Shown piece by piece: positions 5,981 through 34,718 of a stretch of 64,000 nucleotides of DNA; the first letter of the stretch is position 1, and every line of letters begins with the position of its first letter. The stretch spans positions 4,440-68,439 of the forward strand of contig CAMEJJ010000014.1 in the NCBI GenBank assembly GCA_945919795.1, in the 5' to 3' direction. A program made the translations under genes and the position numbers. This DNA is from an uncultured Lachnospiraceae bacterium. GTDB taxonomy: Bacteria > Bacillota > Clostridia > Lachnospirales > Lachnospiraceae. A model generated the notes under the pieces. That model had not been told where the DNA came from and did no database searches. It was given only the letters and a program-made list of their open reading frames with translations.

Positions 5981-5989
5981 GTGTTTCTC

Positions 5990-13100: not shown

Positions 13101-13124
13101 GTCATTCAGAAAGGAGTGTTAACG

Positions 13125-15015: not shown

Positions 15016-15028
15016 GGAGGACAAAATC

Positions 15029-15592
15029 ATGGCAATTATCACAAACCCTACTAAAGTTATCACAGGTGTTAACACAAGATGGTCTTACGCAAATGTGTGG
15101 GATCCAAAGGCAATCGATGGTGGAAAGCCTAAGTATTCGGTTTCCCTCATCATTCCGAAAGACGATGAAGTAACAGTCAACAAGATTAAGGCAGCCATTC
15201 AGGCAGCATACGAGGAAGGACAGTCAAAGCTTAAGGGCAACGGCAAGTCAGTACCACCTCTTTCTGCAATCAAGAACCCTTTGAGAGATGGGGATATCGA
15301 AAAGCCTGACGATGAGGCATACGCAGGTGCATACTTCGTAAATGCCAACTCCGCTACTGCTCCTGGTGTTGTGGATGCAGACAGACAGCCTATCATCGAG
15401 CGTTCAGAGGTTTACTCTGGTGTTTACGGCAGAGCATCCATCAACTTCTACGCATTCAATGTGAATGGCAACAGAGGAATTGCCTGTGGTCTCAATAATC
15501 TTCAGAAGATTAGAGATGGCGAGCCTCTTGGTGGTAAGGCAAGTGCAGAGTCTGATTTCGCAACAGAGGATGATGACGATTTCCTTTCTTAA
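15029..15592 (+). CDS. DUF2815-family ssDNA-binding protein
   Basis: Trimmed to MAIITNPTKVITG (AAGGAGG 8 nt upstream), with the acidic tail EDDDDFLS typical of SSBs. Confidence 0.75.
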   Translation: MAIITNPTKVITGVNTRWSYANVWDPKAIDGGKPKYSVSLIIPKDDEVTVNKIKAAIQAAYEEGQSKLKGNGKSVPPLSAIKNPLRDGDIEKPDDEAYAGAYFVNANSATAPGVVDADRQPIIERSEVYSGVYGRASINFYAFNVNGNRGIACGLNNLQKIRDGEPLGGKASAESDFATEDDDDFLS

Positions 15593-15663
15593 TCTGTAAC
15601 CATTAACCCGACTGGCAGTGGAATAACTGCTGCCAGTCACTTTTATGAAATGAGGAAAATCTA

Positions 15664-15840
15664 ATGACAAATATTGAACATTTAATGTTAACGATGTGCT
15701 TTGGCATGAATTTCGGATGGATGCTAGGTAGTGTCATAATCATAGTCACTGACGGTATCAAAGCCCTAAACAAAAAGCACAAAATCAAAAAAGAACAAAA
15801 AATCAATGAATACAAAGAAAGGATAGGTGACAATCTATGA
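15664..15840 (+). CDS. Small membrane protein (58 aa)
   Basis: Below the ORF-track size cut-off. My translation is MTNIEHLMLTMCFGMNFGWMLGSVIIIVTDGIKALNKKHKIKKEQKINEYKERIGDNL, with GAGGA 7 nt upstream. Confidence 0.5.
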   Translation: MTNIEHLMLTMCFGMNFGWMLGSVIIIVTDGIKALNKKHKIKKEQKINEYKERIGDNL

Positions 15841-16034
15841 CAATGGACATAATAAACACATTCATTAACCAAGCAATAGAATTTACATTATCAGCAGTCG
15901 TACTGATACTCTGTATCTTTGCTCTAGTAGCAGTATGGAAATGGCTTATTGGATTGTGTATCAAATTTATCCATTGGCTATGTCCAGGATTAAAAAAACA
16001 TAAACAAAATGACTCTTCAAACAAAGAGGAGTAA
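15837..16034 (+). CDS. Small membrane protein (65 aa)
   Basis: ATGA overlap with the previous small ORF. Hydrophobic core LSAVVLILCIFALVAVWKWLIGL. Confidence 0.5.
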   Translation: MTMDIINTFINQAIEFTLSAVVLILCIFALVAVWKWLIGLCIKFIHWLCPGLKKHKQNDSSNKEE

Positions 16035-16087
16035 CAATCAATGTGGCAGGTGTCTTATCTGCCACTTCTTTATAAAGGAGACAAAAA

Positions 16088-18085
16088 ATGCAAATTCCAG
16101 AAGTTATTAAAACAATATCTATTGACCTTGAAACATATTCAAGTGTTCCAATCAAAAACGGTGTGTATCCTTATGCAGAATCCTCCGATTCGGAAATCCT
16201 GCTGTTTGCCTACTCCATCAACAGTGAACCTGTCATTGTAATTGATGTGGCAAATGGCGAAGTAATCCCGGATTATATTCTCAGAGCACTTACGGATGAT
16301 ACCGTGGAAAAATGGGCATTCAATGCTGCTTTTGAAAGAATATTCTTATCCTATTGGCTTAAACGAAATCACCCGGAGTATTTTAAATTCTACAGTATCC
16401 CAGAAGATTCCGTTGGCAACTATCTCGACCCTTCATCATGGAAATGCTCTATGATATGGTCTGCCTACATGGGGCTACCACTCTCTCTTGAAGGTGTTGG
16501 TGCTGTTCTTGGTCTTGAAGAACAGAAACTCAAAGAAGGCAAAGACCTCATCCGTTACTTCTGTGTTCCATGTAAACCCACAAAAGCCAACGGTGGAAGA
16601 ACAAGAAATATGCCCTCTGATGCACCTGAAAAATGGGAACTCTTCAAGAAATATAATAAAAGGGATGTCGAGGTCGAAATGTCCATTCAGCATAAATTAT
16701 CCCGTTTTCCTGTGCCGGATAGTGTGTGGGATGAATACCATATAGACCAGGAAATCAATGACCGTGGCATTATGCTTGATATGGATGTTGTAAAAAACGC
16801 AATCAAATTTGATGCTTTCAGCAAAGCAAGACTTATAGGAACATTAAAAGATAAGACAGAACTTGAGAACCCTAATTCTGTAGTACAGATGAAGGACTGG
16901 CTCTCATCAAAGGGTATCGAAACAGACTCCCTTGATAAGAAAGCCATTGTAGATTTACTAAAAACTGTACCGTCTGATGTTGCAGACGTACTTAAACTCC
17001 GTCAGCAGCTTGCCAAGTCATCCGTTAAGAAATATCAGGCAATGGAAGGTTCTGTTTGTGCCGATGGTCGTGCAAGAGGTATGTTTCAGTTCTACGGTGC
17101 AAACAGGTCGGGAAGATGGGCTGGACGCATAATTCAGTTGCAGAACCTTCCACAGAACCATATGCCTGATTTGGAAGAAGCCCGAGACATTGTCAAATCC
17201 GGTGATTATGAATTTATGAATATCCTTTATGATGATGTTCCCGATGCACTCTCCCAGCTTATCCGTACAGCATTTATTCCAAAACCGGGATACAAATTCT
17301 GTGTAGCTGACTTCTCAGCCATTGAAGCGAGGGTCATTGCATTTTTAGCAAAGGAAAACTGGCGAATGGAAGTCTTCAGAAATAATGGAGATATCTACTG
17401 TGCGTCAGCCAGTGCAATGTTCCATGTCCCTGTTGAAAAGCATGGGCAGAACGCTCACCTTCGTCAAAAAGGCAAGATTGCAGAATTAGCACTCGGCTAT
17501 GGTGGATCCGTTGGAGCCCTTACAAGTATGGGGGCTTTGGATATGGGACTTACTGAAGAAGAGTTACAGCCTCTTGTAAATTCATGGAGGTCAGCCAATC
17601 CTAATATTGTCCAGTTATGGTGGGATGTTGACGATGCTGTAAAGATGGCAATAAAGCAGAGAACTGCCACTGAAACCCACGGTATCAGATTTGTGTATCA
17701 GAGTGGAATGTTGTTCATTGCTCTTCCATCCGGCAGAAGGCTCTGCTATGTGAAACCTAAGATTGGCGAGAACAAGTTTGGTGGCGAATCGGTCACCTAC
17801 GAAGGTGTCGGAACAAATAAAAAATGGGAACGCATCGAATCATATGGTCCCAAGTTTGTGGAAAATATCGTGCAGGCAATCAGCCGGGATATTTTGTGCC
17901 ATGCTATGCGTACCCTCTCCCATTGTTTTATTGTTGGTCATGTACATGACGAACTCATCATTGAGACTCCTATGGACACAGACCTTACGGCTATCTGCGA
18001 ACAGATGGGAAGAACTCCTGAATGGATTGACGGATTGTTCTTAAGAGCAGACGGCTACGAAACAAATTTTTATAAGAAAGATTAA
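16088..18085 (+). CDS. Family A DNA polymerase with 3'-5' exonuclease domain
   Basis: Exo I SIDLETYS, pol motif A VADFSAIEARV, motif B KGKIAELALGYGG, motif C VGHVHDELIIE. Confidence 0.9.
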   Translation: MQIPEVIKTISIDLETYSSVPIKNGVYPYAESSDSEILLFAYSINSEPVIVIDVANGEVIPDYILRALTDDTVEKWAFNAAFERIFLSYWLKRNHPEYFKFYSIPEDSVGNYLDPSSWKCSMIWSAYMGLPLSLEGVGAVLGLEEQKLKEGKDLIRYFCVPCKPTKANGGRTRNMPSDAPEKWELFKKYNKRDVEVEMSIQHKLSRFPVPDSVWDEYHIDQEINDRGIMLDMDVVKNAIKFDAFSKARLIGTLKDKTELENPNSVVQMKDWLSSKGIETDSLDKKAIVDLLKTVPSDVADVLKLRQQLAKSSVKKYQAMEGSVCADGRARGMFQFYGANRSGRWAGRIIQLQNLPQNHMPDLEEARDIVKSGDYEFMNILYDDVPDALSQLIRTAFIPKPGYKFCVADFSAIEARVIAFLAKENWRMEVFRNNGDIYCASASAMFHVPVEKHGQNAHLRQKGKIAELALGYGGSVGALTSMGALDMGLTEEELQPLVNSWRSANPNIVQLWWDVDDAVKMAIKQRTATETHGIRFVYQSGMLFIALPSGRRLCYVKPKIGENKFGGESVTYEGVGTNKKWERIESYGPKFVENIVQAISRDILCHAMRTLSHCFIVGHVHDELIIETPMDTDLTAICEQMGRTPEWIDGLFLRADGYETNFYKKD

Positions 18086-18091
18086 AGACAA

Positions 18092-18133
18092 GAACCCCAA
18101 TGGCATCGTGCTACCATCGGGGTTCCTTTTTTT
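18092..18133. terminator. Hairpin terminator between convergent PolA and regulator genes
   Basis: GAACCCCAATGG-loop-CCATCGGGGTTC followed by CTTTTTTT on the plus strand. Confidence 0.7.
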
Positions 18134-18689
18134 ACTTATAATCTTTTAATTTTTCACTAAGTTCTTTCATTGCACTATCCTTACGGTCTCTCAAAGTTCT
18201 TCTTGAGATACCAAGTTCTTCTGCAACTTCACGCTGTGACTCTCTGTTGGCTACCATCTTGCAAGCACGGAGTTTTTCGTCTGTAAGCTCGTCCAACGCA
18301 TTTGTAAGAGCATTAATCACGGTCTTGTATGCGATAATTTCCTCTGGATTATTGGTATCATCCTTTGCATCATATCCGTTTTCGACCAACACATCATAAG
18401 ATGATTCGTACTCTTCCTGTGATGCTTTTGCACGTGCAGCCTTTTTTTCCCAATTATTATATGTACGATTCATCAAGTCTGCATATTCCTGTGTATCAGC
18501 ATTAAATACAGCGTAATAATGTTTCATGCGACCAGGAAGTGCAATATGTGCTACTGGCACATCATTTCTCTTATAAAACTTTATTGTTTCCTCATCACCA
18601 TCATCAATTGGTACGAAGTAAGGATGTGGATAATTAAGAGTTGAAGGGTTAACAGTTGCTACATTACTTAAATTTACATTCTTTGCCAT
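18132..18689 (-). CDS. Sigma-70 region-4-like HTH regulator
   Basis: Trimmed to MAKNVNLSNV. C-terminus LTDEKLRACKMVANRESQREVAEELGISRRTLRDRKDSAMKEL. Confidence 0.65.
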   Translation of the reverse strand: MAKNVNLSNVATVNPSTLNYPHPYFVPIDDGDEETIKFYKRNDVPVAHIALPGRMKHYYAVFNADTQEYADLMNRTYNNWEKKAARAKASQEEYESSYDVLVENGYDAKDDTNNPEEIIAYKTVINALTNALDELTDEKLRACKMVANRESQREVAEELGISRRTLRDRKDSAMKELSEKLKDYK

Positions 18690-19247
18690 AATTTGTCCTC
18701 TTTCCGCCTTTGCAACCGCAATGGGCGAGGACAATTCGTCTGATGGCACGACAACAAGACGAGACACCATAAAATTTTTGAAATACCCTTTATCGGTAAA
18801 TCATCAATTTTATGTATCCTCGCCCAATGTCGGCCGCCATTTGGCTTAAAATATTTTTTTATGAACACATTTGGGTGTTCAGATGGCATCACAGATTACT
18901 GTGAAGTCATCTCAAAATCCAAAGTGTTAGCTGCTTGTATTTGTATATTCTCCTTTAACTTTTCAACTTCACATGAAATTACACACAGTCAAATGGAGAA
19001 TAATATAAAAAAGACTTTTTATGGTTCATGGCTCATATTAGCCATAAATGTTTCATAGTTAGGAATCTTTACAATCATAAATTGAATATCATCAACCAAA
19101 AGAGCATCTATGATTGTCCGTTTTTCAGAAGCATCCTTGTAAGTGTAAGCTAGTCAATCACTTGCATAAGATGTGTTTTGCTTTTCTGTAATTTCATTTT
19201 ATCTTGGATTTGAAATAACACCATGAAGTGGGACTTTAAGCCAAAAA

Positions 19248-19306
19248 AGGCACAAAAAATAAGGGCTCCCACGATTTTGTTATTTTTCAAAATCGTGAGA
19301 GCCCTT
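19248..19306 (-). terminator. Rho-independent terminator after the ImmA/IrrE-HTH gene
   Basis: 19-bp stem AAGGGCTC(C/T)CACGATTTTG / CAAAATCGTG(A/G)GAGCCCTT, followed on the minus strand by ATTTTTTGTG. Confidence 0.8.
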
Positions 19307-19354
19307 ATAGTTTCGTTCCAAACTTAAAGTCGCACTTTAAAAATTTCTTATTTT

Positions 19355-21250
19355 TTAACAAGGTAATTGTAAATTTACATGAGCATCATCAATCTTTCTC
19401 TGCCACTCTTCGACAGAATCATCTGGATGCCCCCATATAAGCTGTTTGATAAAGAATGTGGCTTGATTCCACTTTCCATCAAAGCCTGCTTTTGAAAGAA
19501 GATCCTCAAAAAACACAGGATGCAAACATAATGCCTTACATACAGCCACAACATTTGCATACTTTCTATCGGCACCATTATCATTAATATATTTGCTTAA
19601 TGTCTGAACAGATAGGTGGCATCTGCCACTTAATTCTTCTTCATTTACATCCAGACGTTTCATGTGATATTTTAATGTTCCACCAAAACTAGCAGGAAGT
19701 TCACCCATAATATCCGACAAATCCCCAGAAACATTTGCTATCTGCTCTAAGTTTTTACATCTTTCGCTCCTGCTCTGATTGTCTTTATGTTCAGGATTAT
19801 AACTGGCTTCAATAAATGTATCCGAAACAACATCCCTGCATAAGAAGCATCTACGATAAAAGGTGTCACTGTACTGCTGACTTGCACTTATTTTTCTATC
19901 AAAAATGAAACAGCACTCATCTACGTGTTCCAACGCATATTCAGTAAGGATAAGCATTCCCTGTTCATTTGTTTCTATATATTCAGGTGCATTTATACAT
20001 ATCATGCTGTTCGCATAGACGATTTTATTCTCAAAGAAAAACTGCCTTAACACAGGATCCATGAACATCACATACAATGCATTCTGCTCATCAATCACAA
20101 ATGTTTGGTTTTTCCCAATAGCATCTTTCTTAAATGCAAAAGGTGGTAGATATCGACCTTCTGTATATACAAAAGTTCCCTGCACTTTCTCATACCCAAG
20201 TTCTATCAATCTTAACTTAGCTGCGAAAATAGATACCCGAAAATAATCAGCTACTCGTTCTACTGTTTCCTGCACCAATTCAGCATATCGTCTCTGAGGA
20301 TTTGCTGTATATAAATCCGCCAAAACCTTATCATATACACGCTTTGTCATCTTTGCAGGCATAAGGATTCTCGGTGCTAACTGGTTAGCCTGCCACTCCA
20401 TCCATTTGATTGATGGCGCATCATCTGGAATGCCTTCATATGTATCAACGATTTCACAAGAAATATGGTTACAATCACCTGTCAACAGCTTTTGCAATTC
20501 AAATGCCTTACGATGCCTGTCCCAATGAACACATTCATGTATGATGGTGTTGTTGGCAGTTCCAACATTACGCATAAAATATACATTGGGATTTATAAGC
20601 ATTGTTCCCGGCTGAGTCATAATTTCAACTTTTTCTTTAAGTGTATTATCCGTATAAACAGTTACTTTTTCTATACCAAAGTATGTCTTTCCAAACACAG
20701 TGTCTCCCAATGGAGCATAATACACACTCATTCCCATGCTCTGTGCCACTTCAAATACTGGCAATGCCATCGGCTGCAATAATGCTTTTTGATAATGTCT
20801 GCTCAAAAAATCTTCAGCGTTTTTCTCAACAGCATCTTCATACAAATACGGGACAAGATCCTGGCTCAAGCTTTTGTCCTTTTCAAACTTTGCCGGATTA
20901 TACTCCTCCGCATTTGTAATTCTTACCTGCTGCAGTCCGTTTTCAAGTTTGGCACTAAAGAATATATTATATGAACCATTATCAGCTATTTCGTCATATC
21001 CGTATCTTGTTTTTCCCTTCACAGAGATATCTGCATCCACAGAAACTCTTATTTCCAATAATCCGTCATCTTGCTCTTTGAAGGTAACACCGCTGACATG
21101 AATATCATCTGGTTCTGCATATGAAACCGAATAAACAATATCACTTTCAAAGGAATCTTTGTGCGCAATGACCATGCCTTTAACCCTGTTAAAGATTTCA
21201 TCATAATACACATCTTCCATATATTCCTTGAAGTTATTATATTTTTTCAT
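19355..21250 (-). CDS. ImmA/IrrE (M78) zinc metallopeptidase fused to a C-terminal XRE-type HTH, with extra N-terminal and middle domains (631 aa)
   Basis: HEXXH in NNTIIHECVHWDRH, downstream MEWQANQLAPRILMP (typical E..AN.FA..LLMP), and a C-terminal HTH LKYHMKRLDVNEEELSGRCHLSVQTLSKYIN. A candidate extended -10 promoter TGATATAAT lies on the minus strand at 21301..21310. Confidence 0.75.
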   Translation of the reverse strand: MKKYNNFKEYMEDVYYDEIFNRVKGMVIAHKDSFESDIVYSVSYAEPDDIHVSGVTFKEQDDGLLEIRVSVDADISVKGKTRYGYDEIADNGSYNIFFSAKLENGLQQVRITNAEEYNPAKFEKDKSLSQDLVPYLYEDAVEKNAEDFLSRHYQKALLQPMALPVFEVAQSMGMSVYYAPLGDTVFGKTYFGIEKVTVYTDNTLKEKVEIMTQPGTMLINPNVYFMRNVGTANNTIIHECVHWDRHRKAFELQKLLTGDCNHISCEIVDTYEGIPDDAPSIKWMEWQANQLAPRILMPAKMTKRVYDKVLADLYTANPQRRYAELVQETVERVADYFRVSIFAAKLRLIELGYEKVQGTFVYTEGRYLPPFAFKKDAIGKNQTFVIDEQNALYVMFMDPVLRQFFFENKIVYANSMICINAPEYIETNEQGMLILTEYALEHVDECCFIFDRKISASQQYSDTFYRRCFLCRDVVSDTFIEASYNPEHKDNQSRSERCKNLEQIANVSGDLSDIMGELPASFGGTLKYHMKRLDVNEEELSGRCHLSVQTLSKYINDNGADRKYANVVAVCKALCLHPVFFEDLLSKAGFDGKWNQATFFIKQLIWGHPDDSVEEWQRKIDDAHVNLQLPC

Positions 21251-21318
21251 GTAACGGCACCCCCTTTAGCAAAAATAAACTTCATATGCTCACTTTACAA
21301 TATTATATCACTGAATAT

Positions 21319-21963
21319 TTATTTGAACGGTGAAAAATATCCAGGAAAATCTTCAATTGACATATTATACTTTTGTAAAATTCCTTCTGTACTGTACATT
21401 TTAGAATTATCGTAATTCAAGAAAAAATCATCACTGCACAAATCTAATGGTGTACCAGTCCAATAATATAATGCTAATGCCAATATACTAATCGTCTTTA
21501 TTTTTATTCCCAGTATATTATATACATCGGTAATTACATTCCAATAATCCGTTCGATGATTTGGAAGATCCCAGCAAACAACAAGTGGTACTATTTTGTT
21601 CACATCTTCACCTTTTCTACAATGCACGACAGCATAGTCATCTAAAAGATTTCTAGGTGCATCCAAAATTTCTGTAGAAGGTATTTCTATCTCTGTAACA
21701 ACTTTGTATTCTGGAAATGTTATAGTTGCATCAAATCGTTCACTATTATCACCTTTGCGCGGGAAATAAACATCTCCTCCTAAACCAGAAAACAATAAAT
21801 TAATCAACTCATTTTCTCCATTAGGAGCTAATTTAACTGTAGATATTGACTTACGCAATTTTTCCAGTTTATCCGTTAAACTCAAGTCATTATTAACAAT
21901 TAATTCTATTTCTGAGACATTTGCCGATTTCGCACTGTCTTGTATACTTTCAAATATTCTCAA
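21319..21963 (-). CDS. Small subunit of a two-subunit type IIS restriction endonuclease (paralog of the large-subunit catalytic domain)
   Basis: ELINLLFSG..RFDATITFPEYKVVTEIEIPS and DLPNHRTDYWNVITDVYNILGIKIKTISILAL align by eye with the large-subunit segments DLIGYIFN..RYDVMIPDDDYSIPVEVKS and KLPNDRSDVYKLIEEVYETYKINIAILDMNTL. There is a 14-nt overlap with the upstream gene. Confidence 0.6.
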   Translation of the reverse strand: MRIFESIQDSAKSANVSEIELIVNNDLSLTDKLEKLRKSISTVKLAPNGENELINLLFSGLGGDVYFPRKGDNSERFDATITFPEYKVVTEIEIPSTEILDAPRNLLDDYAVVHCRKGEDVNKIVPLVVCWDLPNHRTDYWNVITDVYNILGIKIKTISILALALYYWTGTPLDLCSDDFFLNYDNSKMYSTEGILQKYNMSIEDFPGYFSPFK

Positions 21964-23644
21964 ATCTAATTACACCTCTTTTTCCTATAAATTCAGAGAC
22001 ATCATAATATGTTTTATTCTGAGCACAATAAAAAGACGCCCTAATAAGTGTGTTCATGTCCAATATTGCAATGTTGATTTTATAAGTTTCATATACCTCC
22101 TCAATCAACTTGTAAACATCAGATCTGTCATTCGGTAATTTATAACCACAAGCAAAAGAACTCACATCAAAAGTGGTTTTATATGGTTTTCTTGCTAACA
22201 ATAATACTTTATTTTCTGTTGCCTGACGGATTGCCTTTACAGATAACATTTCTTCCTCAGTTGGCGATTTTACCTCAACTGGTATTGAATAATCGTCATC
22301 AGGAATCATAACATCATATCTCATATTATTATTTCCCGCTGAAGGAGCAAAAGCAGGTCTGTTAAAAATATAACCTATTAAATCTGCTACTAGCGGATAA
22401 AATTCTGTTTGTTTCATATTTACAATGTCATTCATAAATCTATTAATAGCATTATTTAAATTACCTCTTTCACTTGCGATTCTCTTCAACAGCATTTTGT
22501 TTATCTGTTCATTCTTTGACATTTTAGACTCTTTTGCTTCTACAAATGCTTCTGATTTAGATGACAAAATATTTATGTTTGTATCAACTTCTGTATTTCT
22601 ATGCTCTGTTCCTGTTTGCAAAGCATTATTAGGTAACACAATTTCCAATTCTGACCCAGAAAAATATTGATATGGCGAAAAAATAATGTCCATCTTCCCC
22701 TCTGTAGCAAGCATTTTTTGTAATTCCGAATCGTATTTTTTTATTTCCTCATCAACATCAAAATCTGCTCTTCTAAACATACATAATAAAGATAATTCTG
22801 ATATAATCTTTGTTTCCGGGTCGTTTATATCAAGAGTATCTCCTTTAATTACAAGAGAATTTTTTATCTGATCTACAACTCTTTTTCCCTTTTCGGTCAG
22901 AATTAGAAATGGACTTGATTTCCCATATAATTTCAAATTTTTCTTTTCAAACCATCCAGTAAACTCTAATGCTGAATTCACAAATCTAGTAAGATTCCTT
23001 ACAGAATTTGCCTGCATATCATTTAAGTCCGCTAATTTTTCTATTTCATCATTTAATGAATTCATATTTTTTGTTGCTCTTAGCTTTTTTAAATAAGAAA
23101 TTTTATTCTTCTTTTCATTTTCTGAATATCCATCTAACAAATTCATAGCACCTAGCAAAATCTCATCCCTATGAATTTTTCCATCTAATTGCTCTGCAAA
23201 TAATAACATATTTACAAATGGTCTGTTTCTATCTGGAAATTTCACATTTAAAATATGATTCTGATATTCCACGCCTAACAAACATTGTTCAAAGAGAGAT
23301 TTAGATCCACTCCCAGAAAGAGCGACATGAAGTCCTAAATATGTAAAATTAAAATTTAGTGCCTTTTTCCCAGATGTTATCCATCCCAAAATGCGAAACC
23401 ACTCAGAATAACTTTTGGCTTGCATTTTCATAGATTTTCTTGAATCATCTTTAACCAAATATGATCTTCTAAGTGCTTCATCTCCAGTATACCCTGATGA
23501 ACTAGCAATTTTCTCTCTTGCAAAGAATTCTGCAATATTATCAAGATCAAAATAATCCATATTTGAAAATTCAATATACATCTTTTTAAAGTTTTCAATA
23601 AACACATTTATATCAGAAACCGGATTTCTAAAACGAATCATCAA
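21950..23644 (-). CDS. AlwI/N.BstNBI/BspD6I-family type IIS restriction (nicking) endonuclease, large subunit
   Basis: 564 aa. PD-(D/E)XK region AGNNNMRYDVMIPDDDYSIPVEVKS resembles the AGNQPDMEII..GEVTTSK region of N.BstNBI as I recall it. It lies directly downstream of two MTase genes. Confidence 0.6.
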   Translation of the reverse strand: MMIRFRNPVSDINVFIENFKKMYIEFSNMDYFDLDNIAEFFAREKIASSSGYTGDEALRRSYLVKDDSRKSMKMQAKSYSEWFRILGWITSGKKALNFNFTYLGLHVALSGSGSKSLFEQCLLGVEYQNHILNVKFPDRNRPFVNMLLFAEQLDGKIHRDEILLGAMNLLDGYSENEKKNKISYLKKLRATKNMNSLNDEIEKLADLNDMQANSVRNLTRFVNSALEFTGWFEKKNLKLYGKSSPFLILTEKGKRVVDQIKNSLVIKGDTLDINDPETKIISELSLLCMFRRADFDVDEEIKKYDSELQKMLATEGKMDIIFSPYQYFSGSELEIVLPNNALQTGTEHRNTEVDTNINILSSKSEAFVEAKESKMSKNEQINKMLLKRIASERGNLNNAINRFMNDIVNMKQTEFYPLVADLIGYIFNRPAFAPSAGNNNMRYDVMIPDDDYSIPVEVKSPTEEEMLSVKAIRQATENKVLLLARKPYKTTFDVSSFACGYKLPNDRSDVYKLIEEVYETYKINIAILDMNTLIRASFYCAQNKTYYDVSEFIGKRGVIRFENI

Positions 23645-23751
23645 TATTCCTCCTTTTTGTACGAGATAGACACCTCGTCATTTTTCATAACGGGTGTCAT
23701 CTTCTTATTTTTATTATATTCAATACTTACAAGTGATGGCATAAATGCGTT

Positions 23752-24564
23752 TTAAATCTTTGAAAGCCTTTCATTTGCGACATCACACCAACGTTGTTCC
23801 AATTCAATCCCTACCCATTTAATATGGTGTCCCTGCTTATTGAGTTTTTCGCAACATACGCCTAATGTTCCAGAACCATGGAACGGATCCAATATTGTAC
23901 CTTCATATAAGCCATCATTATTTTTAGGACAATAAGCTTTTATTAATTCTGTAATTAGAGCCTCTGGTTTTTGTGTAGGGTGTTCTGTTTTTTCTTTAGC
24001 ATAAGCTTTTCCAGCTAATGTAGGAAAAGCCCACACATCACCTCTCATAGCTCCATTAGGGTTTGGTGTCCACATTTTTTTCTCACCATTCTTCCCCTTA
24101 TAATACACTGGTGTCTTTAGTCTTTCTGTACTTTTATATGGCACTCTTACATCATCAACATTATATGTCCATTTCGATTTAGCCTTCGAAAACCATAAAA
24201 ATGGTTCATACTGAGTCAATGGAGCCTTTGAACTTCTTGAGAATCCATTTTCGTAATACCAGATATTCATTCTTCTATAATATAATCCTGCATTATACAT
24301 TATTGTTTGAATAAAACCTATATAATGATGAATTCCAAACCAAAGAATACTTCCTGTTGGAGTCAATAATTCTTTACAAAGCTCTATCCTTCTTTGCGTA
24401 ACCTTTAAGAAATCATCCAATTCCAACTTATCACTGTCATTTCCAAAATCTTTATTCAAATTATATGGGGGGTCTGTGCATATTAAATCAAACTGCAATC
24501 CCTCATCAACAAATTTCTGTAATATTTCATCACTGTTGCCTCTAATAACACAATTATAATCCAT
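23752..24564 (-). CDS. DNA methyltransferase, beta class, DPPY motif (probably N6-adenine)
   Basis: CTDPPYNL near the N-terminus, EHPTQKPEAL, and LDPFHGSGTLG near the C-terminus (PF01555 order). Confidence 0.85.
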   Translation of the reverse strand: MDYNCVIRGNSDEILQKFVDEGLQFDLICTDPPYNLNKDFGNDSDKLELDDFLKVTQRRIELCKELLTPTGSILWFGIHHYIGFIQTIMYNAGLYYRRMNIWYYENGFSRSSKAPLTQYEPFLWFSKAKSKWTYNVDDVRVPYKSTERLKTPVYYKGKNGEKKMWTPNPNGAMRGDVWAFPTLAGKAYAKEKTEHPTQKPEALITELIKAYCPKNNDGLYEGTILDPFHGSGTLGVCCEKLNKQGHHIKWVGIELEQRWCDVANERLSKI

Positions 24565-24566
24565 TT

Positions 24567-25673
24567 TTACTTCTTTCCTTGCTTCTCTTTTTTTAATATC
24601 AAAACATACTGGTGATGTATATTTTCTACATATGCGAATGGGTATCCATAAGGTAACAAACTCTTATGGTTTTGGAGAAGAATCTTTGTCCCCTGTAATT
24701 TTAGGATTCCTCCCTCCGGTATTTCCGCCTTATTTAATTCATGTATTAAATCGCTATGAAAACTAATGTAGTCAGATTTATCTCTGAAATCTGAAACAAC
24801 AATTGCCATATACTTTCCATATTTTAAGGTTCTTGCACATTGTAAAAAAATTTTATTCACCAATATATCAATGAACTGGTCGTAATTTTCAACATTTCCT
24901 AAATCTTTTTCGCTCTCAGAATATTTTGTTTCTAGATTATTAGCCACTCTGTTCTTCTTAACTTTCTGATCCTGTTTATTTAGTATGCCCCAGTATGGAG
25001 GACTCGTTACCACAAAATCTATTGACTCAGTAGGTATTTTTATAAGTTCATCGCATGAATCACCATTTATAAAATTATGTTTTTCACTTGTTCCTTGTCC
25101 TACTTCTTCTTCAAGTCGCTTTATTGATAATTCATGCCAAACTGGTGATAATTCTATACTAGTACATTTTCGTCCATTTATCTCACAAGCTTTTGCTGTT
25201 GAACCCACTCCTCCAAATGGATCTAACACCATCATCCCACGTTTAGTAAAGAAATTTACTAGATGTCCAATATCTTGAAACGAATATGGCGCCGGATGCA
25301 ATTTTTCAATTTGTGCTTCAGGATGGTTTGCACCAAGTCCTTTCTGATAGAAAAAGCTTTTTGTTTCCGGCAACCAGTCCTTCCCTGTCAAATCATTCAG
25401 ATTATTCCTTGGATCCACCGTTCCATTTGCTAATTCATCATATCTATCAGTTTTCATGAATTTTTTTATGTCATCTACATTGTATAATTTTTTCTTCTCA
25501 TCATAAACTGGACTTAACAAACCTTCTTGTATTACTTTTTCAAAATTATGTCGAGATATTTCTAAAATTTTCATAGCCTTTGCTGCACTAACTAATATCT
25601 CGTCATTATTTTCTATTTTAGTCTCATTATCATCAAATGATAATTCTAATTGATTATTCACATTAGCCTCCAT
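24567..25673 (-). CDS. DNA methyltransferase with SPPY motif (probably N4-cytosine), permuted motif order, N-terminal HTH-like extension
   Basis: HPAPYSFQD and LDPFGGVGST precede VVTSPPYWG. The N-terminal ~100 aa include SAAKAMKILEISRHNFEKVIQEGLL. Confidence 0.8.
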   Translation of the reverse strand: MEANVNNQLELSFDDNETKIENNDEILVSAAKAMKILEISRHNFEKVIQEGLLSPVYDEKKKLYNVDDIKKFMKTDRYDELANGTVDPRNNLNDLTGKDWLPETKSFFYQKGLGANHPEAQIEKLHPAPYSFQDIGHLVNFFTKRGMMVLDPFGGVGSTAKACEINGRKCTSIELSPVWHELSIKRLEEEVGQGTSEKHNFINGDSCDELIKIPTESIDFVVTSPPYWGILNKQDQKVKKNRVANNLETKYSESEKDLGNVENYDQFIDILVNKIFLQCARTLKYGKYMAIVVSDFRDKSDYISFHSDLIHELNKAEIPEGGILKLQGTKILLQNHKSLLPYGYPFAYVENIHHQYVLILKKEKQGKK

Positions 25674-25688
25674 TCTGTTACCCCTAAT

Positions 25689-25895
25689 TTACTTTTCATC
25701 AATAAATTCCATTACATCTCCAATATTGCAGTGTAAAGCTTTACATACTTTTTCAATTGTATCCATCGAAACAGCCTCATTTTTTCCAAGCTTTGCAACT
25801 GCATTCGTACTAATCCCTGCTTTTTCTTTTAGCTGAGTCTTATTCAAGTTTTGATCAATCATTCTTTTCCATAACTTATTGTAACTAATTAACAC
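25689..25895 (-). CDS. XRE/Cro-C1-type HTH protein, candidate R-M controller (C) protein
   Basis: ISYNKLWKRMIDQNLNKTQLKEKAGISTNAVAKLGKNEAVSMDTIEKVCKALHC. I prefer the GTG start at 25895 (AGGAGG 10 nt upstream); an alternative ATG lies at 25925. Confidence 0.65.
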   Translation of the reverse strand: MLISYNKLWKRMIDQNLNKTQLKEKAGISTNAVAKLGKNEAVSMDTIEKVCKALHCNIGDVMEFIDEK

Positions 25896-25952
25896 GGAAT
25901 TATATCCTCCTTGAATCCTCTTCATTATTTTTATTATACTCCTTTTCTATAT

Positions 25953-25984
25953 AACTATCAAGCATATATTGATATATATCAAGA
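25953..25984. promoter_or_regulatory. Candidate C-box/operator upstream of the C gene
   Basis: CTATCAAGCATATATTGATATATATCAAGAT contains the perfect 14-bp palindrome TTGATATATATCAA (25969..25982) and a second TATCAAG half-site. Confidence 0.45.
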
Positions 25985-26032
25985 TTTTCTTGTTTTTTCT
26001 ACACTTCAATCATGTGATTTCTTACTCCACAA

Positions 26033-26224
26033 TTACTTCATCTGCTCATCTGCTCTGGTAATCACAAGCTTTCCTCCATCGCACTCGACCCTTATAGGAG
26101 TTCCCGGCTCAAAGCCTAATGTTTCAAGCCATGCTCCCTTCAATATGATGGTGGCTGTGTCCTTATACCGATACCCTGACTGTGCATATACCTTCATTTT
26201 GCGTTCTTTTTTAAATACTGCCAT
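26033..26224 (-). CDS. SymE-like (AbrB/SpoVT-fold) toxin-family protein
   Basis: IILKGAWLETLGFEPGTPIRVECDGGKLVIT parallels E. coli SymE [31 protein letters not shown]. Confidence 0.7.
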   Translation of the reverse strand: MAVFKKERKMKVYAQSGYRYKDTATIILKGAWLETLGFEPGTPIRVECDGGKLVITRADEQMK

Positions 26225-26531
26225 AGTTAACCCTTCCTTTCTGTTTCATCCATCTGATGGTTTTTCCGTTTTCAATTACATATGTATCGTGATTCTTTAT
26301 GCTCTCCACAGCCTTGGCAACCGTCCAGGTTTCCCAATGCTTGTGGTAATACTTTGTATCTGCCGTATGCTTATGATACAAGGTCACAGGCTTATTTGAA
26401 TCAACTGACTTCTTGAAAATAATCCATTGGTGTTTTGTATTATTACTTCTGACTTCAATAAACTTCTCTTCCTCCCGGATGATGGTAAAGTACCCTCCAC
26501 CGAGCATTTGTTTTTCTTTCTTCGTGAACAA
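26211..26531 (-). CDS. Hypothetical protein co-transcribed with the SymE-like gene
   Basis: 106-aa ORF with a 14-nt overlap with the SymE-like ORF. I recognise no motif. Confidence 0.5.
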   Translation of the reverse strand: MFTKKEKQMLGGGYFTIIREEEKFIEVRSNNTKHQWIIFKKSVDSNKPVTLYHKHTADTKYYHKHWETWTVAKAVESIKNHDTYVIENGKTIRWMKQKGRVNYGSI

Positions 26532-26545
26532 TAGGCAGTTCCTCC

Positions 26546-27874
26546 TTATAATGTTATTTTCATTCGTGCCCCATCAATAAGTTCAATTTTTAATATTCCG
26601 TTTGGAAAAACTGTAGCCGAACTGACCACAATAGAAATGTCTTGAATATCCTTGACATAAGACTTTTTAAATGTGACCTCGGCTGCAATACCGAGATTAA
26701 GGAATATGTTTTGTAATACTATTTTGATTTGAGGATATTTTTTGAAAATCCTCCTAGCTATCTCTATATAGATATTAGGCAGCTCACTTTGAAGAATCCG
26801 AGTGTTCTTGCAATAAAGCGGAGTTTTAAATCTATTTCGGCACATCATAACAATCTTGCGATATTTATCATTGGAGTGTTCTGGTTTTGGTCCATACCAT
26901 GTACCACAGACGCCGCATCTTAAAAGTGAAGATGCGGGGGTAATTCCACTATACTTTTCTCTCCCTGATGAGGTTCTGGATGAAATCAGAGTTTGTGTGT
27001 AATCGAACACCACCTCATCAACAATAGGCTCATGCCCTTCATGAACATAATATTGTGGTAATTCTCCTTCATTCTTCTTGGCCTTCTTAGTAAGAAAGTC
27101 TACAGTAAATGTTTTCTGAAGCAAAGCGTCCCCCTTATATTTTTCATTTTTAAGAATGCTAAGGACAGAACTCGGATGCCACCTGTCTTTTCCTGCGGGG
27201 GACTTGACTTCCCATCTTTGTAAGAACTGAGAGATTTTATAAGTCGAATAACCTTGAATGTACATTCTGAAAATTAGTCTGACAAATACCGCCTGTTCTT
27301 CATTTATCTCAAACCCGGCATTGTATCCCAAAAAACTTTTATAGCCCACAGAATATTTCCCATCAGCAAATCTCTTACGAAGCCCCCATGCAGTATTTTC
27401 TGAAATCGACCGCGCCTCTTCCTGTGCAAGCGAAGTGAGTAAAGTAATCAGGAATTCACCCTTGGAATCAAGAGTCCATACATTTTCTCTCTCGAAGAAT
27501 ACTCCAACTCCGATTTCCTTTAATTCTCTTATAACATTCAGAGCATCCACAGTATTCCTTGCAAATCTACTAACTGATTTAGTTAGTACCATATCTATCT
27601 TTCCTTGTTTACAGTCTTCAATCATCCTCTGAAATTCTGCACGATGACGATAAGAAGTCCCTGTTATACCTTCATCAACATATATCCCAACGAGCACCCA
27701 TGATGGGGCTTCTTCTATCTTTTTCTCATAATAGTCTTTTTGCGCCTCAAGGCTATTTAGCTGTTCATCGTTATATGTAGATACCCTTGCGTATGCTGCT
27801 ACCTTTTTTATTGATGTTTTCTGCATTGGAAGTGCTACAATACTTATCGGTTCAATCTTTGTAACCCTACTCAT
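26546..27874 (-). CDS. Large serine recombinase (phage integrase)
   Basis: VAAYARVSTYNDEQLNSLEAQ (catalytic Ser), VLTKSVSRFARN, a recombinase domain and a Cys-rich zinc-ribbon region CGVCGTWYG..CRN. Trimmed to MSRVTKIEP (GGAGG 9 nt upstream). Confidence 0.9.
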   Translation of the reverse strand: MSRVTKIEPISIVALPMQKTSIKKVAAYARVSTYNDEQLNSLEAQKDYYEKKIEEAPSWVLVGIYVDEGITGTSYRHRAEFQRMIEDCKQGKIDMVLTKSVSRFARNTVDALNVIRELKEIGVGVFFERENVWTLDSKGEFLITLLTSLAQEEARSISENTAWGLRKRFADGKYSVGYKSFLGYNAGFEINEEQAVFVRLIFRMYIQGYSTYKISQFLQRWEVKSPAGKDRWHPSSVLSILKNEKYKGDALLQKTFTVDFLTKKAKKNEGELPQYYVHEGHEPIVDEVVFDYTQTLISSRTSSGREKYSGITPASSLLRCGVCGTWYGPKPEHSNDKYRKIVMMCRNRFKTPLYCKNTRILQSELPNIYIEIARRIFKKYPQIKIVLQNIFLNLGIAAEVTFKKSYVKDIQDISIVVSSATVFPNGILKIELIDGARMKITL

Positions 27875-28058
27875 CCTCAAAAACCTCCTGAACGTAAAAT
27901 CCCGGTGTTTCAATCGATTTTAAAGGTGGGTCAAAATCGACCAGAAGTTGCTTATGGATTTCTTCGTATTCCTTTATAGTAATTTCATTAGAATGTAGCA
28001 TATTGGTTATCAGCCACTTGGCACATCTGTACTGCACTTCTCTATCTTGATGTTCCAT
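27867..28058 (-). CDS. Hypothetical small protein, first gene of the recombinase operon
   Basis: 63-aa ORF with GGAGG 7 nt upstream and an 8-nt overlap with the recombinase start. Confidence 0.5.
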   Translation of the reverse strand: MEHQDREVQYRCAKWLITNMLHSNEITIKEYEEIHKQLLVDFDPPLKSIETPGFYVQEVFEDE

Positions 28059-28070
28059 ATCGGATTCCTC

Positions 28071-28266
28071 CTATCGTTAAAGATAGTAAAAGTAACCCTC
28101 TTTATTTGAGATAAGTCAAGTAATATATAACTTTTAACGATATCACACATTTTAACGATAATAATTCCTATCGTTAAAAGGGTTTCATTTAAGAGATTTA
28201 GGATTTTCCCTGTGTTGCGATATCAGGACTTCAAATAGCATAACCCGGTGTTTTCTATCGTAAAAA
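28071..28266. promoter_or_regulatory. Cluster of TATCGTTAA(AA) motifs between the recombinase operon and the phage-host junction
   Basis: Copies at 28072..28080 (+), 28132..28143 (inverted), 28151..28160 (inverted), 28169..28180 (+), and a degenerate one at 28256..28266. The middle pair forms TTTTAACGATA-N8-TATCGTTAAAA. Confidence 0.5.
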
Positions 28267-28286
28267 AGCCTTATTTCAAGGGATTT

Positions 28287-30647
28287 CTACATCCATGCTT
28301 GTATCAATTTCGTAGTAGGGTTGTTATCAGCACCGGCTGAAACAAGGCCAATCTTTGGCATAAAGTTTTCCAAAAAAGCTTCCGAAGAAGAAAAACGAGA
28401 GCCATGATGTCCAAGTTTTAACAGACTGATGCTGCTATTTCGTAAATATGGTGATTTCATAATTTCATTTTCATATGCGGCTGTTAAATCCCCCATGAAC
28501 AATAATTTCTGTTTTTGGCATTCCAAAAGTAAAACCATAGAGCGGTCATTTTCATCCGGATTTATTATTGATGTTATTTTGTTATTATCTTTTCCCTGAT
28601 TTCCATTTATCCCACCATTATCATCCTTTCCTTTTCCACTCGCTTTTCCCGGATACAAACATGTCAGCATAAAATCATTCCCCTCGATATGATCTCCTTC
28701 TGAAAAATACAACACCTGCGTCCCCGATTTCTGTGCAGCAGATAAAATCGTTTGATATGCTTCATTTTCTTTTGCATAATCCGTAAGCACAAGGTAACGA
28801 ATGGAAATCCGGTTACTCTTTGGGTTCTCTAACAATTCCAAAACACCGTTCGTATGATCTTTATCCGCATGTGTCAAAAACACAAAATCCACAGTCTGAA
28901 TGCCATGACTTCTCAAAAAAGGAGAAATCCTGTATTTCCCAACATCAGAAACCGAACTGCTGCCACCGTCAATCATCATACATAAGCCACCTATTTCCTC
29001 TAAAACAAAACAGTCTCCCTGCCCGACATCTAACATAGTCAGCGTTGTATCATTTACACTATGAACGCATAATAAAATGGAATTCAGCAAAAGGAGCAAA
29101 CCCGCTAAAAATGCACGGTACTTTTCTACATTCACAACAATTCGTCTTCCGTATTTCGGGATGATTTCTGTTAATCGTTTTTTTCCTTTTTTCATCCAAC
29201 GCTTTCCACAATCGCTACTACACAAACAAAGAAGAAAAAGTACGCAGTAATAGATTACTATTTTATGAATTTCCGGTTTTGCAATCACCGGATGAGCAAA
29301 AGGTAATTCATCAAAAAGCAGACATAGTTTCTCATATCCGCTCAAGATTAAATGACAAAACCATAAAATACCTTTTCCCATACCGGGCATTATGACACCA
29401 ATTACAGCGCCTGCCATTCCTACAACCATCAAAATACCAACAAAAGGTGTTATCAATATATTTAAAATCAAAGAATAAATGGAAAACGTGTAAAAGAAAT
29501 AGATTTGAATGGGAAGTGTGGATATAAGAACACTGAGACTTACACGAAAAGAAGATACAATAAACTTTTTTATTTTTTTGATTATTTTCCCAACTATTGT
29601 ATCTTTTTTAAGAACCATGGCATCAATCAGTTTTTGCTGTTTCGATAAACCGGTGATAAAAGGAAGAATAAATGCAATTCCTGCGACGGCGCTAAACGAG
29701 AGCAAAAAACCACTATAGTATGCATACAATGGATTCCAAAACAAAAGAAGCGCGGCAGATAATGACATTGCTGTCATCAAATCATATGTCCTATGGACAA
29801 CCTCTGAAAACAGAAATAAGGAAAACATGATAATACTTCGAACTGCAGATGCCTGTGAACCGGTCAATAAACCATACATAACAACAAACAAAAACGAAAC
29901 AGAGTTAGCAACAGATAACGGAATGCGTATCTTTCTCAACAACCGGCACAATCCCATTCCCCAGAGTGTAATGTGCAGTCCCGATACCGCGATGATATGA
30001 GCAATTCCATTTCTTTGGTAAAGCTCCTTTATCTCTTCATCCATTCCGGTTTTATCTCCAAACAGCATGGCTTTTAACACCCCTGCATCTTCTTTGGACA
30101 TGGAGACATCTAAAACATTTGACAGGCTGTTTTTTATCACATACAGTCCATGTCGTACCGGCCAATAAGTTTCTGATACGATTTCATAGCTACACCCTGT
30201 CATGGAAAAGTCCATTCCCATAATGGCATAGTATTCTTTCATATCAAACTGTCCATCGTTTGTGGCAGATTCAAACTGACGCACTTTCCCCTGTACAACC
30301 ACGGTGTTACCGATTTTCAATTTTTTCCCGATTGAATTTTTAGATGTATATTCTGACAGACAATCTGATGCGTTTTCAGACAGATTTTTAGATGTATCTT
30401 CAGAATCATATTGAGATGTGTTTTCCAGATTCTCAGATAAATAACAGATCACAGAAATATCTTTCTTCGAATTTTTCAGATATATAACCGTATGATTATT
30501 TTTTACTCCCATGTTATAAACCTTACCGCAAAACCGGACATTTTGATCATTATCCTGTCTATCTTCCGGTTTCTGCGACATAAATGTCATACATAACATG
30601 ATTAAAAACACATAAATCAGGCAGAGCAGACATAGCGGTCTTCTCAT
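28287..30647 (-). CDS. comEC: ComEC/Rec2 DNA internalization channel protein, C-terminus truncated/replaced at the prophage junction
   Basis: Competence domain, many TM segments, metallo-beta-lactamase motifs LTHADKDHTNG, MGDL and LGHHGS. It ends ..SAGADNNPTTKLIQAWM, lacking the expected YGHP and the distal ~40-60 aa. Confidence 0.85.
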   Translation of the reverse strand: MRRPLCLLCLIYVFLIMLCMTFMSQKPEDRQDNDQNVRFCGKVYNMGVKNNHTVIYLKNSKKDISVICYLSENLENTSQYDSEDTSKNLSENASDCLSEYTSKNSIGKKLKIGNTVVVQGKVRQFESATNDGQFDMKEYYAIMGMDFSMTGCSYEIVSETYWPVRHGLYVIKNSLSNVLDVSMSKEDAGVLKAMLFGDKTGMDEEIKELYQRNGIAHIIAVSGLHITLWGMGLCRLLRKIRIPLSVANSVSFLFVVMYGLLTGSQASAVRSIIMFSLFLFSEVVHRTYDLMTAMSLSAALLLFWNPLYAYYSGFLLSFSAVAGIAFILPFITGLSKQQKLIDAMVLKKDTIVGKIIKKIKKFIVSSFRVSLSVLISTLPIQIYFFYTFSIYSLILNILITPFVGILMVVGMAGAVIGVIMPGMGKGILWFCHLILSGYEKLCLLFDELPFAHPVIAKPEIHKIVIYYCVLFLLCLCSSDCGKRWMKKGKKRLTEIIPKYGRRIVVNVEKYRAFLAGLLLLLNSILLCVHSVNDTTLTMLDVGQGDCFVLEEIGGLCMMIDGGSSSVSDVGKYRISPFLRSHGIQTVDFVFLTHADKDHTNGVLELLENPKSNRISIRYLVLTDYAKENEAYQTILSAAQKSGTQVLYFSEGDHIEGNDFMLTCLYPGKASGKGKDDNGGINGNQGKDNNKITSIINPDENDRSMVLLLECQKQKLLFMGDLTAAYENEIMKSPYLRNSSISLLKLGHHGSRFSSSEAFLENFMPKIGLVSAGADNNPTTKLIQAWM

Positions 30648-33884: not shown

Positions 33885-34568
33885 CTAGTTTACCTTAATC
33901 AGGTCCTTTATTTTTTCATACGTTCCGCTTTTGATTCCCGAAACATTTTGTATCTCCTCAATGGTTGCAAAACCACCCTGTTCTTCCCGATAAGCAATAA
34001 TTGCCTGCGCTCTGGTAGCACCTATTCCGGGAAGTGTACATAATTCACTCTCGGATGCATCATTTAAATTAACCAGTCCGTCATCCGTTTCTGTTTTCAT
34101 CTGCAAGATGCCATCCGTTTTCTGCTGTTCCCATTCGATTTCATTCAGAATATATATTTTTTGACCGTCAGAAACACTCTCCGCACGGTTTACAGATTCT
34201 AAACACGCATCATCCGTCAATCCTCCTGCGGCGGTAATCACCTCAAATACTCGTGCTCCTTCATGAAAAGAATATACACCCGGATTGTTTACGGCTCCAC
34301 AGATATCAACATAGATCAAATGATTTCCATCTTCCACGTCCTGTTTGGCATTTGCCGTATTCGAAATTTGTTCCGTTTCTATATCAGAATCATTTTCGGC
34401 ATCCTTTTTACTATCCGAATCCTCTTCCGTCAAAAGCACATATCCGCTATCATCATCCGATAAAACATAATCCTTTTGAGCAGAACATCCGGAAAGAAAA
34501 ATGACAACGACAGATAAAAGAATTGCCGTACATGGATAACACAATAGAAAACATAATCGTTTTTTCAT
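33885..34568 (-). CDS. comEA: ComEA-family DNA receptor (SLBB plus helix-hairpin-helix)
   Basis: LNDASESELCTLPGIGATRAQAIIAYREEQGGFATIEEIQNVSGI. Start trimmed to MKKRL (AGGAGG 7 nt upstream). Confidence 0.85.
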   Translation of the reverse strand: MKKRLCFLLCYPCTAILLSVVVIFLSGCSAQKDYVLSDDDSGYVLLTEEDSDSKKDAENDSDIETEQISNTANAKQDVEDGNHLIYVDICGAVNNPGVYSFHEGARVFEVITAAGGLTDDACLESVNRAESVSDGQKIYILNEIEWEQQKTDGILQMKTETDDGLVNLNDASESELCTLPGIGATRAQAIIAYREEQGGFATIEEIQNVSGIKSGTYEKIKDLIKVN

Positions 34569-34718
34569 TAACATACCTCCTATTTTTCAACAGAAGGTCC
34601 TTCTATGCTAATCGTGTCTTATATTTTATTCCAAAGATTTGAACTTTACAAGATAGTTTTTACAGAATTGTTACAAAATGCAAAAAACTCATCGTTCATT
34701 TATTCAAATCACAACATT

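Follow-up and report, generated by a model that had tools for sequence, protein, structure and literature searches.

Is a prophage that splits a competence gene a switch by which its host turns DNA uptake on and off, or a phage that has settled in a well conserved site? The question is raised by a stretch of 64,000 nucleotides (the window in the following) from an uncultured Lachnospiraceae bacterium (GenBank assembly GCA_945919795.1, contig CAMEJJ010000014.1, positions 4,440 to 68,439 of the forward strand), in which comEC, a DNA channel/nuclease gene, breaks off where phage-type DNA begins. The locus is probably explained by the conservative, serine recombinase-mediated integration of a Phi1207.3/Phi-m46.1-like phage into comEC, with loss of a conserved 44-residue tail of the encoded protein. 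A host-controlled switch is most likely not the meaning of this arrangement; the likelier alternatives are that the phage simply exploits DNA that is very conserved, or that it gains by blocking transformation, a strategy put forward before for serine recombinase elements. That a prophage had entered the 3' end of comEC by site-specific recombination, beside a large serine recombinase operon, had been proposed in an earlier reading of the letters alone (the sequence-only reading), and is borne out by a sharp break against the empty site and by the domains of the recombinase.

The truncated comEC (28287..30647, minus strand) encodes 786 amino acids with the Pfam domains Competence (5e-54) and Lactamase_B (8e-11). 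The protein holds the motifs LTHADKDHTNG, MGDL and LGHHGS, as already pointed out in the sequence-only reading, and ends in ...KIGLVSAGADNNPTTKLIQAWM before the stop codon. In a search space of 5.8 billion proteins, three conspecific ComEC alleles of 819 residues (P0002-P0004) match the window protein at 100% identity as far as N775, where the common part ends, and read on past the junction as ...GADN-SYGHPHSETLERLAKIGTIVYRTDELGATKICLKEGKIEIVEYY. A prophage-free ComEC likewise ending in ...NNPTTKLIQAWM, which would have spoken against an insertion, was not found, as the conspecific alleles continue for 44 residues. The intact gene is present on four contigs (L001-L004) from four samples, which are 99.5-99.98% identical to the window by blastn and share its upstream synteny of a GerM-like gene, a two-component system and comEA. 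Since all four blastn alignments of these empty sites stop at window position 28324, the breakpoint lies between 28323 and 28324; the former estimate of 28,314-28,319 had the right neighbourhood, yet the true break is found 5-10 bp to the right. Codons 1-775 are hence host DNA without extra damage compared to the intact alleles, while the final 11 codons and the stop (28287-28322) are phage-encoded. In sum, ComEC lost 44 residues at the junction, within the range of 40-60 that had been anticipated, and gained 11. The competence gene comEA (33885..34574, minus strand; SLBB and HHH_3 domains by Pfam; synteny as in the prophage-free L001) is situated about 5.5 kb from the break, the distance given before, and about 3.2 kb beyond the comEC start. 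As had also been foreseen, the phage extends to the left of the window: the element runs off the left edge, and the comEC 3' fragment is absent from the 64 kb, in which tblastn matched only 12 pre-junction residues.

Two other origins of the junction were considered and rejected. An assembly chimera is ruled out by independent assemblies that show the same phage arm fused to the ComEC of other hosts at the same codon. An attachment site of the tRNA type is excluded by the absence of any tRNA gene in the window and of any Rfam match in 25500-28600.

Alignment with prophage-free comEC, as recommended in the sequence-only reading for defining the bacterial attachment site (attB) and the crossover dinucleotide, yielded AA as the core (28324..28325, minus strand; from attB against the window and the blastn ends). 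In short form, attB (L001, 12300-12350) reads gctgatAAttcttatgg, the window junction gctgatAAcaaccctac and the attL of related lysogens ccaacgAAttcttatgg, i.e. the core is found as gatAAttc, gatAAcaa and acgAAttc, respectively; in longer form, attB is gccggtgctgatAAttcttatggacat and the window junction gccggtgctgatAAcaaccctactacg. Fifteen further junctions were obtained from the closest homologues of the adjacent 442-residue recombinase and by scanning metagenomes for the phage arm. Comparison of the arms over all 16 junctions delimits the hybrid attachment site at the comEC-5' junction to 28299..28350 (minus strand), comprising a phage half-site (28299-28323), whose distal motif TGATACAA occupies 28299-28306, and a host half-site (28326-28350) with TGAAACAA at 28338-28345. 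On the relatives' left arm, the inverted motif TTGTATCA is located 17-24 nucleotides left of the core, with TGATACAA 18-25 nucleotides to the right. The phage site attP can thus be reconstructed as TTGTATCA-N16-AA-N17-TGATACAA, an imperfect inverted repeat with the sequence TTGTATCATTTT(T/C)TTTGTCCCAACG-AA-CAACCCTACTACGAAATTGATACAAGC (also written TTGTATCATTTTTTTGTCCCAACGAACAACCCTACTACGAAATTGATACAAGC), the left arms of both attL and attP being taken from related lysogens instead of this genome. AA is the sole identity between attB and the reconstructed attP. Such a core combined with an inverted-repeat attP is a hallmark of large serine recombinases. Integration was a conservative serine recombinase reaction of attP with an attB inside the codons ...SAGADN/SYGHP... 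(the slash marks the crossover, here and below), across the 2-bp AA core.

The counterpart of this junction can be seen in relatives. In another Lachnospiraceae metagenome-assembled genome (L090), 174 nucleotides of foreign DNA are followed by ...ttgtatcatttttttgtcccaacgAA/ttcttatggacgccctcat..., and the comEC 3' fragment starts at exactly the nucleotide of the window break. The contigs L177 and L178 show the same junction, with the remnant starting at the same nucleotide. A chimeric peptide composed of the phage-derived MVQSLRLYHFFVPTN and the lost 44 residues was used as query and matched five small proteins, four of which have the phage-host architecture on remnants of at least three different ComEC/metallo-beta-lactamase (MBL) genes. 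The remaining one, P0243, is a C-terminal piece of an ordinary comEC. The attL open reading frames (ORFs) in other lysogens likewise join the phage-encoded HFFVPTN to the host-encoded SYGHP... via the same AA core. From these relatives, the far junction in the present genome is expected to read ...GTCCCAACGAA/TTCTTATGGACATCC..., with the host side also represented by TTCTTATGGACATCCTCATAGTGAAACC. A scan of GTDB genomes with the ComEC C-terminus returned other species only, at no more than 90% identity, and scans of IMG/VR gave zero matches for the comEC 3' DNA, the phage right arm and the reconstructed attP. Exact matches to the window ComEC (P0001) and to left-end phage proteins were either absent from the records or confined to contigs of 1-2 kb. 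Because this type of recombination is conservative and the relatives keep the 3' remnant, we infer that precise excision would rebuild comEC.

Some loci deviate from this picture or add to it. In L189 (IMGVR_UViG_2884859028_000001), the left arm is fused to TTAGTATAGACATCCAGTGGGAGAAACACTTATTCAGTAA, which translates to N-stop-YRHPVGETLIQ-stop and resembles a comEC-type remnant that has decayed or become a pseudogene, an observation that would speak against gating. About 1030 nucleotides into the oriented locus L179 (OMAG01003484.1), the right arm, in a CGAAAGG variant, is fused to non-coding palindromic DNA (...AAAAGTATACTTTTAA/GA/...); the core is GA, not AA, and the left side corresponds to none of comEC, comM and the customary left arm of attP. 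Use of a secondary site, or a rearrangement, may have given rise to this junction. The bin MAG089 (JAEDFR01) holds both an intact comEC contig (L088) and the attL-type L090 with a different 3' allele, and is probably a mixture of two strains, one lysogenic and the other not. Just 3' of the intact comEC in the prophage-free L001 (12555-12802) lies a tandem array with a 52-bp unit (at least 4.8 copies, 89% matches), each unit with a hairpin rich in GC (GGCGGGG...CCCCGCC). In every one of the four samples, the contig stops 140-340 bp past comEC, apparently within this array, which in the lysogen should sit past the far end of the prophage.

What does ComEC lose? The sequence-only reading had held that ComEC proteins normally continue with YGHP, and indeed 116 of 118 full-length homologues have [YFH]GHP within their last 80 residues, the window protein being one of the two exceptions. 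In an alignment of 42 sequences, Y777, H779, P780, H781, T798 and G802 are invariant, and thus six of the 56 invariant columns of the family fall into the lost stretch. An AlphaFold2 model of the intact protein (mean predicted local distance difference test score 82.5, predicted template modelling score 0.81) places residues 776-819 in the MBL domain, as the YGHPH loop, a helix (782-790) and three strands (794-797, 804-809 and 812-817); the solved ComEC structures 9vc6 and 9ic4 align across this stretch. The insertion hence takes out a conserved part of a transformation gene, i.e. the invariant YGHPH and three core strands. In Bacillus subtilis, the nuclease activity of ComEC is important for transformation and nuclease-dead ComEC is severely impaired, while some ComEC proteins naturally have no MBL domain (PMC8579336; for the latter also PMC12455585). 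Conservation and the model together make a strong case that the resident prophage would disable the nuclease domain and, as a consequence, transformation of the lysogen, until precise excision would restore comEC.

The same phage arm recurs at the same position, ...N/, in nine ComEC/MBL genes (the window, L174, L175, L168, L180/184, L182, L183/187, L185 and L186), and the associated recombinases are 93-96% identical to that of the window. Among them, L174 has a 96% identical recombinase and an identical NPTTKLIQAWM-stop tail. Full-length ComEC is the target in at least four hosts (the window, L184, L186 and L187), whereas the targets in L168 and L182 are stand-alone MBL proteins without channel domain. 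The arm is also found at AAMN/PCPCG of comM/YifB, in L167 (recombinase 95% identical), L181 and L188, and sister lineages with 82-85% identical recombinases (L169/L170 and L007) reside in comM as well. The phage lineage uses this one codon position of ComEC/MBL genes in numerous hosts, and has another site in comM. The recombinase sequence was considered as an explanation for the choice between comM and comEC and set aside: comM-inserted and MBL-inserted enzymes differ in only three group-specific positions, which are not explanatory, and each arm variant is found with each target class. The left half-sites of the two classes have few positions in common (T-20, A-18, T-17 and Gs near -9), and the right half-sites of comEC and comM attB show no convincing similarity. 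In the intact comM of an Oscillospiraceae member (L103, ~6250-6300), AMN/PCRCG is followed five codons on by WYGHP, while ComM of L135 has YYGD; the likeness of this WYGHP to the comEC site is probably coincidental. Taken together, the targeting of both comM and MBL genes points to the recognition of a conserved, short stretch of DNA or to a general sabotage of competence, rather than to host-specific regulatory logic.

The candidate integrase next to comEC is a large serine recombinase of 442 amino acids (26546..27874, minus strand; Resolvase 2.6e-33, Recombinase 4.3e-18, Zn_ribbon_recom 1e-05). Its longest ORF spans 26546-27913, and the shorter form was adopted because homologues begin at M14. 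The start of the gene is overlapped by a small SHOCT_2 ORF of 63 amino acids (27867..28058, minus strand; PF20612 3.3e-07; phrog_2996), and the two are always paired in relatives. This operon lies on the same strand as comEC, 228 nucleotides 3' of its stop codon (the sequence-only reading gave about 230 bp) and 265 nucleotides from the breakpoint. Right after the new comEC stop, RNA folding predicts a weak hairpin with a U-run (28262..28289, minus strand) that is conserved in L167, L168, L174 and L175 and may act as a partial terminator; a terminator scan made no call between comEC and the recombinase operon. Since the operon follows only 228 nucleotides downstream on the same strand with merely this weak hairpin in between, read-through from comEC into the recombinase operon is conceivable. 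The promoter and ribosome-binding site region of the operon is covered by four exact TTAACGATA sites in two inverted pairs (28072..28177, no strand assigned). These four matches all fall within 106 bp, versus 0.5 expected in the whole window, show up as inverted repeats (I1-I4) and are kept in L007 and L167-L175, i.e. in all related phages seen. The cluster suggests a putative operator by which the phage could control recombinase expression. A copy of TTAACGAT is found near the other end of the phage (L090/L178), about 30 nucleotides from the left arm. Downstream of the recombinase, a conserved trio (25689..26531, minus strand; Pfam) consists of a 106-residue ORF, a SymE/AbrB-like 63-residue ORF and an HTH_26 regulator, in the same order as in L167, L169, L174 and L176.

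Further recombinases are encoded at the far end of related phages. In the comEC-type lysogen L177, this end comprises HTH_38, SHOCT_2, tandem recombinases of 502 and 524 amino acids, about 6 kb of cargo and attL; the same tandem pair is present at the far end of the comM-type phage L009. Identities between the recombinase sets are 38-54%. The second SHOCT_2 ORF (L177, 482-682), which precedes the far-end pair, is dissimilar in sequence to the first, and SHOCT_2 proteins might be accessory or directionality factors. For Phi1207.3, orf56 and orf57 have been proposed by the authors as integration and excision enzymes (PMC4260502). Because the far-end tandem pair of the relatives mirrors orf56/orf57, the adjacent 442-residue enzyme is to be regarded only as the nearest candidate integrase, with the far-end pair an equally plausible one.

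The visible part of the prophage (1..28323, no strand assigned; annotated with Pfam and PHROGs) reaches the left edge of the window and extends past it. Away from the junction, it encodes SHOCT_2, the large serine recombinase, the AbrB/SymE-like ORF and a helix-turn-helix protein, then two N6/N4 methylases, low-GC cargo, DNA polymerase A, a DUF2800 nuclease and an Enc34-type single-stranded DNA-binding protein (SSB), and finally a D5-type primase, an SNF2 helicase, a regulator, an HNH endonuclease, the small terminase, an S-adenosylmethionine (SAM) synthetase-like protein and two methylases. These phage ORFs are all long and open, and near the junction the DNA is 92-95% identical to that of relatives. 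As part of the same explanation, which we hold to be probable, the element is a temperate phage similar to Phi1207.3 and Phi-m46.1, with a genome of roughly 50-60 kb, and a member of a full-size, lytic-capable family. Within the prophage, the stretch 19000-26000 has a GC content of 31-35% compared to 38-46% in its flanks, and encodes the two N6/N4 methylases, proteins of 564 and 214 amino acids without Pfam, PHROG or PADLOC match, and a 631-residue protein (phrog_4031) with a weak CapP-like match (5e-09). Because L167, L169, L175 and L176 carry different genes there, the stretch probably serves as a slot for variable cargo or defence genes. A short SAM synthetase-like gene (5198-5980; N-terminal domain only, phrog_1569) and an amidoligase-like gene (1304-2020) are found near four DNA methylases; the same SAM synthetase/amidoligase/methylase set in Phi1207.3-type phages hints at an extensive phage DNA-modification module.

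How, then, is the splitting of comEC to be understood? One possibility is active lysogeny, in which non-lytic, regulated excision rebuilds comEC and allows DNA uptake, as modelled on comK, skin and SPbeta. The conservative mode of recombination and the 3' remnants kept in related lysogens would fit this view, as would the position of the recombinase operon, which follows comEC after 228 nucleotides in the same orientation and is separated from it by a weak hairpin, and the putative operator cluster, which suggests regulated recombinase expression. The undamaged 775 host codons would agree with it too, although a recent insertion accounts for them equally well. However, no recombination directionality factor was identified, and any of up to three recombinases may be the responsible one. 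Moreover, the same recombinase and arm occur in comM and stand-alone MBL genes of various hosts, so that a DNA motif dictates the choice of site rather than a host circuit; lysis and structural genes are part of the full-size phage family to which the element belongs, and the left arm of L189 adjoins an apparently decayed remnant (see above). Active lysogeny is thus considered very unlikely. The opposite extreme, a defective, immobile remnant that can no longer excise and leaves comEC a permanent pseudogene in this strain, is distinctly unlikely. Only 28 kb of the element are visible with the far end outside the window, remnants may decay as in L189, and Tn1207.1 offers a precedent as a defective left-end derivative of Phi1207.3 at the same site as the latter (PMC4260502); yet, the visible phage ORFs are long and open with 92-95% nucleotide identity to relatives near the junction, and the 5' part of comEC has remained undamaged.

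If the prophage is neither a switch nor a wreck, the target itself may still have been selected. Blocking transformation could shield a prophage from deletion by incoming homologous DNA, a conflict hypothesis discussed in PMC11472951. Such selected competence sabotage would explain why a single recombinase/arm lineage enters two competence genes that are not homologous and why distant relatives in Streptococcus hit comEC elsewhere with different recombinases, and agrees with the enrichment of serine recombinase targets in competence genes published in PMC10083194. Against it, stand-alone MBL genes other than comEC are also targets (L168 and L182), and both sites are very conserved motifs with partly alike left half-sites that could alone explain the choice. 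The idea appears quite possible, although short of probable. A bolder version, in which one recombinase/attP lineage (at least 93% identical) alternates between comEC-type N/xYGHP and comM AAMN/PCPCG under selection against DNA uptake and recombination, its dual specificity being evolved, or in some hosts a reversible competence switch, and no accident of look-alike motifs, is rather doubtful. Alternatively, the choice could be neutral: truncated ComEC might be functional enough, or competence unused, and the YGHP-coding DNA simply conserved. The same codon is hit in at least nine divergent ComEC/MBL genes, and ComEC proteins naturally devoid of an MBL domain do exist (PMC8579336, PMC12455585). 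In contrast, the lost segment accounts for six of 56 invariant columns and three core strands, ComEC of B. subtilis is severely impaired once its nuclease is dead (PMC8579336) and conspecifics maintain intact alleles, which makes a neutral choice unlikely. Several points also weigh against the proposed integration of a temperate phage with loss of ComEC function. The far junction is outside the window, so that neither the 3' remnant nor the prophage need be intact in this genome; a free attP turned up neither in IMG/VR nor in the Joint Genome Institute (JGI) metagenomes; up to three recombinases may be candidate integrases; the loss of function is deduced from conservation and a model; and natural competence has, as far as could be told, not been demonstrated for this group. 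Nevertheless, conservative integration of a Phi1207.3/Phi-m46.1-like phage at a very conserved site remains the explanation that we favour.

On this explanation, comEC-splitting serine recombinase prophages are extended from streptococci to gut and rumen Lachnospiraceae. Their precise, highly conserved attachment site can be defined as N/xYGHP with the core AA, and many hosts provide natural examples of it. The use of two competence-related genes by one recombinase/arm lineage provides material for studying how attB half-sites are read, as well as for the idea of transformation silencing. Should excision turn out to be regulated, comEC would become the second phage-controlled competence gene after comK of Listeria.

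The closest known systems are Phi1207.3, Tn1207.1 and Phi10394.4, serine recombinase elements that reside in the streptococcal comEC (celB) at a GA dinucleotide (PMC4260502). Like the prophages of the streptococcal Phi1207.3/Phi10394.4 family, which have about 52-58 kb, the present element sits in comEC as a result of serine recombinase-mediated integration at a 2-bp core. Its gene order is also that of phi-SsuHCJ31_comEC from Streptococcus suis (MN270268), which belongs to the Phi1207.3/Phi-m46.1 family, i.e. the recombinase beside the comEC 5' part, methylases/cargo, inverted DNA polymerase A, primase, helicase, SAM synthetase, HNH, methylases and terminase, with 64-68% nucleotide identity in polymerase A, DUF2800/SSB, primase and helicase. 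As in Phi1207.3, tandem recombinases are found at the far end of the relatives (L009, L177), while the window shows the left-end one. In contrast to the streptococcal phages, the host belongs to the Lachnospiraceae, no mef/msr cargo is seen in the visible part of the prophage and the lineage also uses comM; the recombinases are 40-53% identical to the streptococcal ones. The attachment site differs as well, since comEC of S. suis is split into 559 and 184 residues instead of 775 and 44, and the core is AA here and GA in S. pyogenes.

The comK prophages of Listeria (A118/phi10403S) offer a second parallel, in which a phage with a large serine recombinase interrupts a competence gene whose reading frame is regained upon excision; the A118 integrase is similar in size to the window recombinase. 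For these prophages, regulated non-lytic excision during infection has reportedly been shown by experiment. The window system is known from its anatomy alone, and its target is a DNA channel/nuclease gene instead of a regulator. In skin (sigK) and SPbeta (spsM), serine recombinase elements are removed by precise excision that rebuilds the gene and is tied to sporulation in the mother cell, and skin is degenerate. Unlike these, the element in the window belongs to a complete-looking phage family and has entered a gene unrelated to sporulation, and a developmental promoter was not identified.

On a broader scale, 12.4% of site-specific large serine recombinases target Mg-chelatase (ComM/YifB) genes according to the systematic survey by Durrant et al. 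(2022, PMC10083194), in which genes for 'competence proteins', ComK and ComG also appear as enriched targets and are read as a common strategy of competence disruption (Supplementary Note 1). The parts of the survey that were consulted do not describe the present lineage, the N/xYGHP site or an alternation of recombinases at least 93% identical between comM and ComEC. Measured against these precedents, comEC-splitting serine recombinase prophages are already known from streptococci, and the dual targeting of comEC and comM is an only moderately novel detail.

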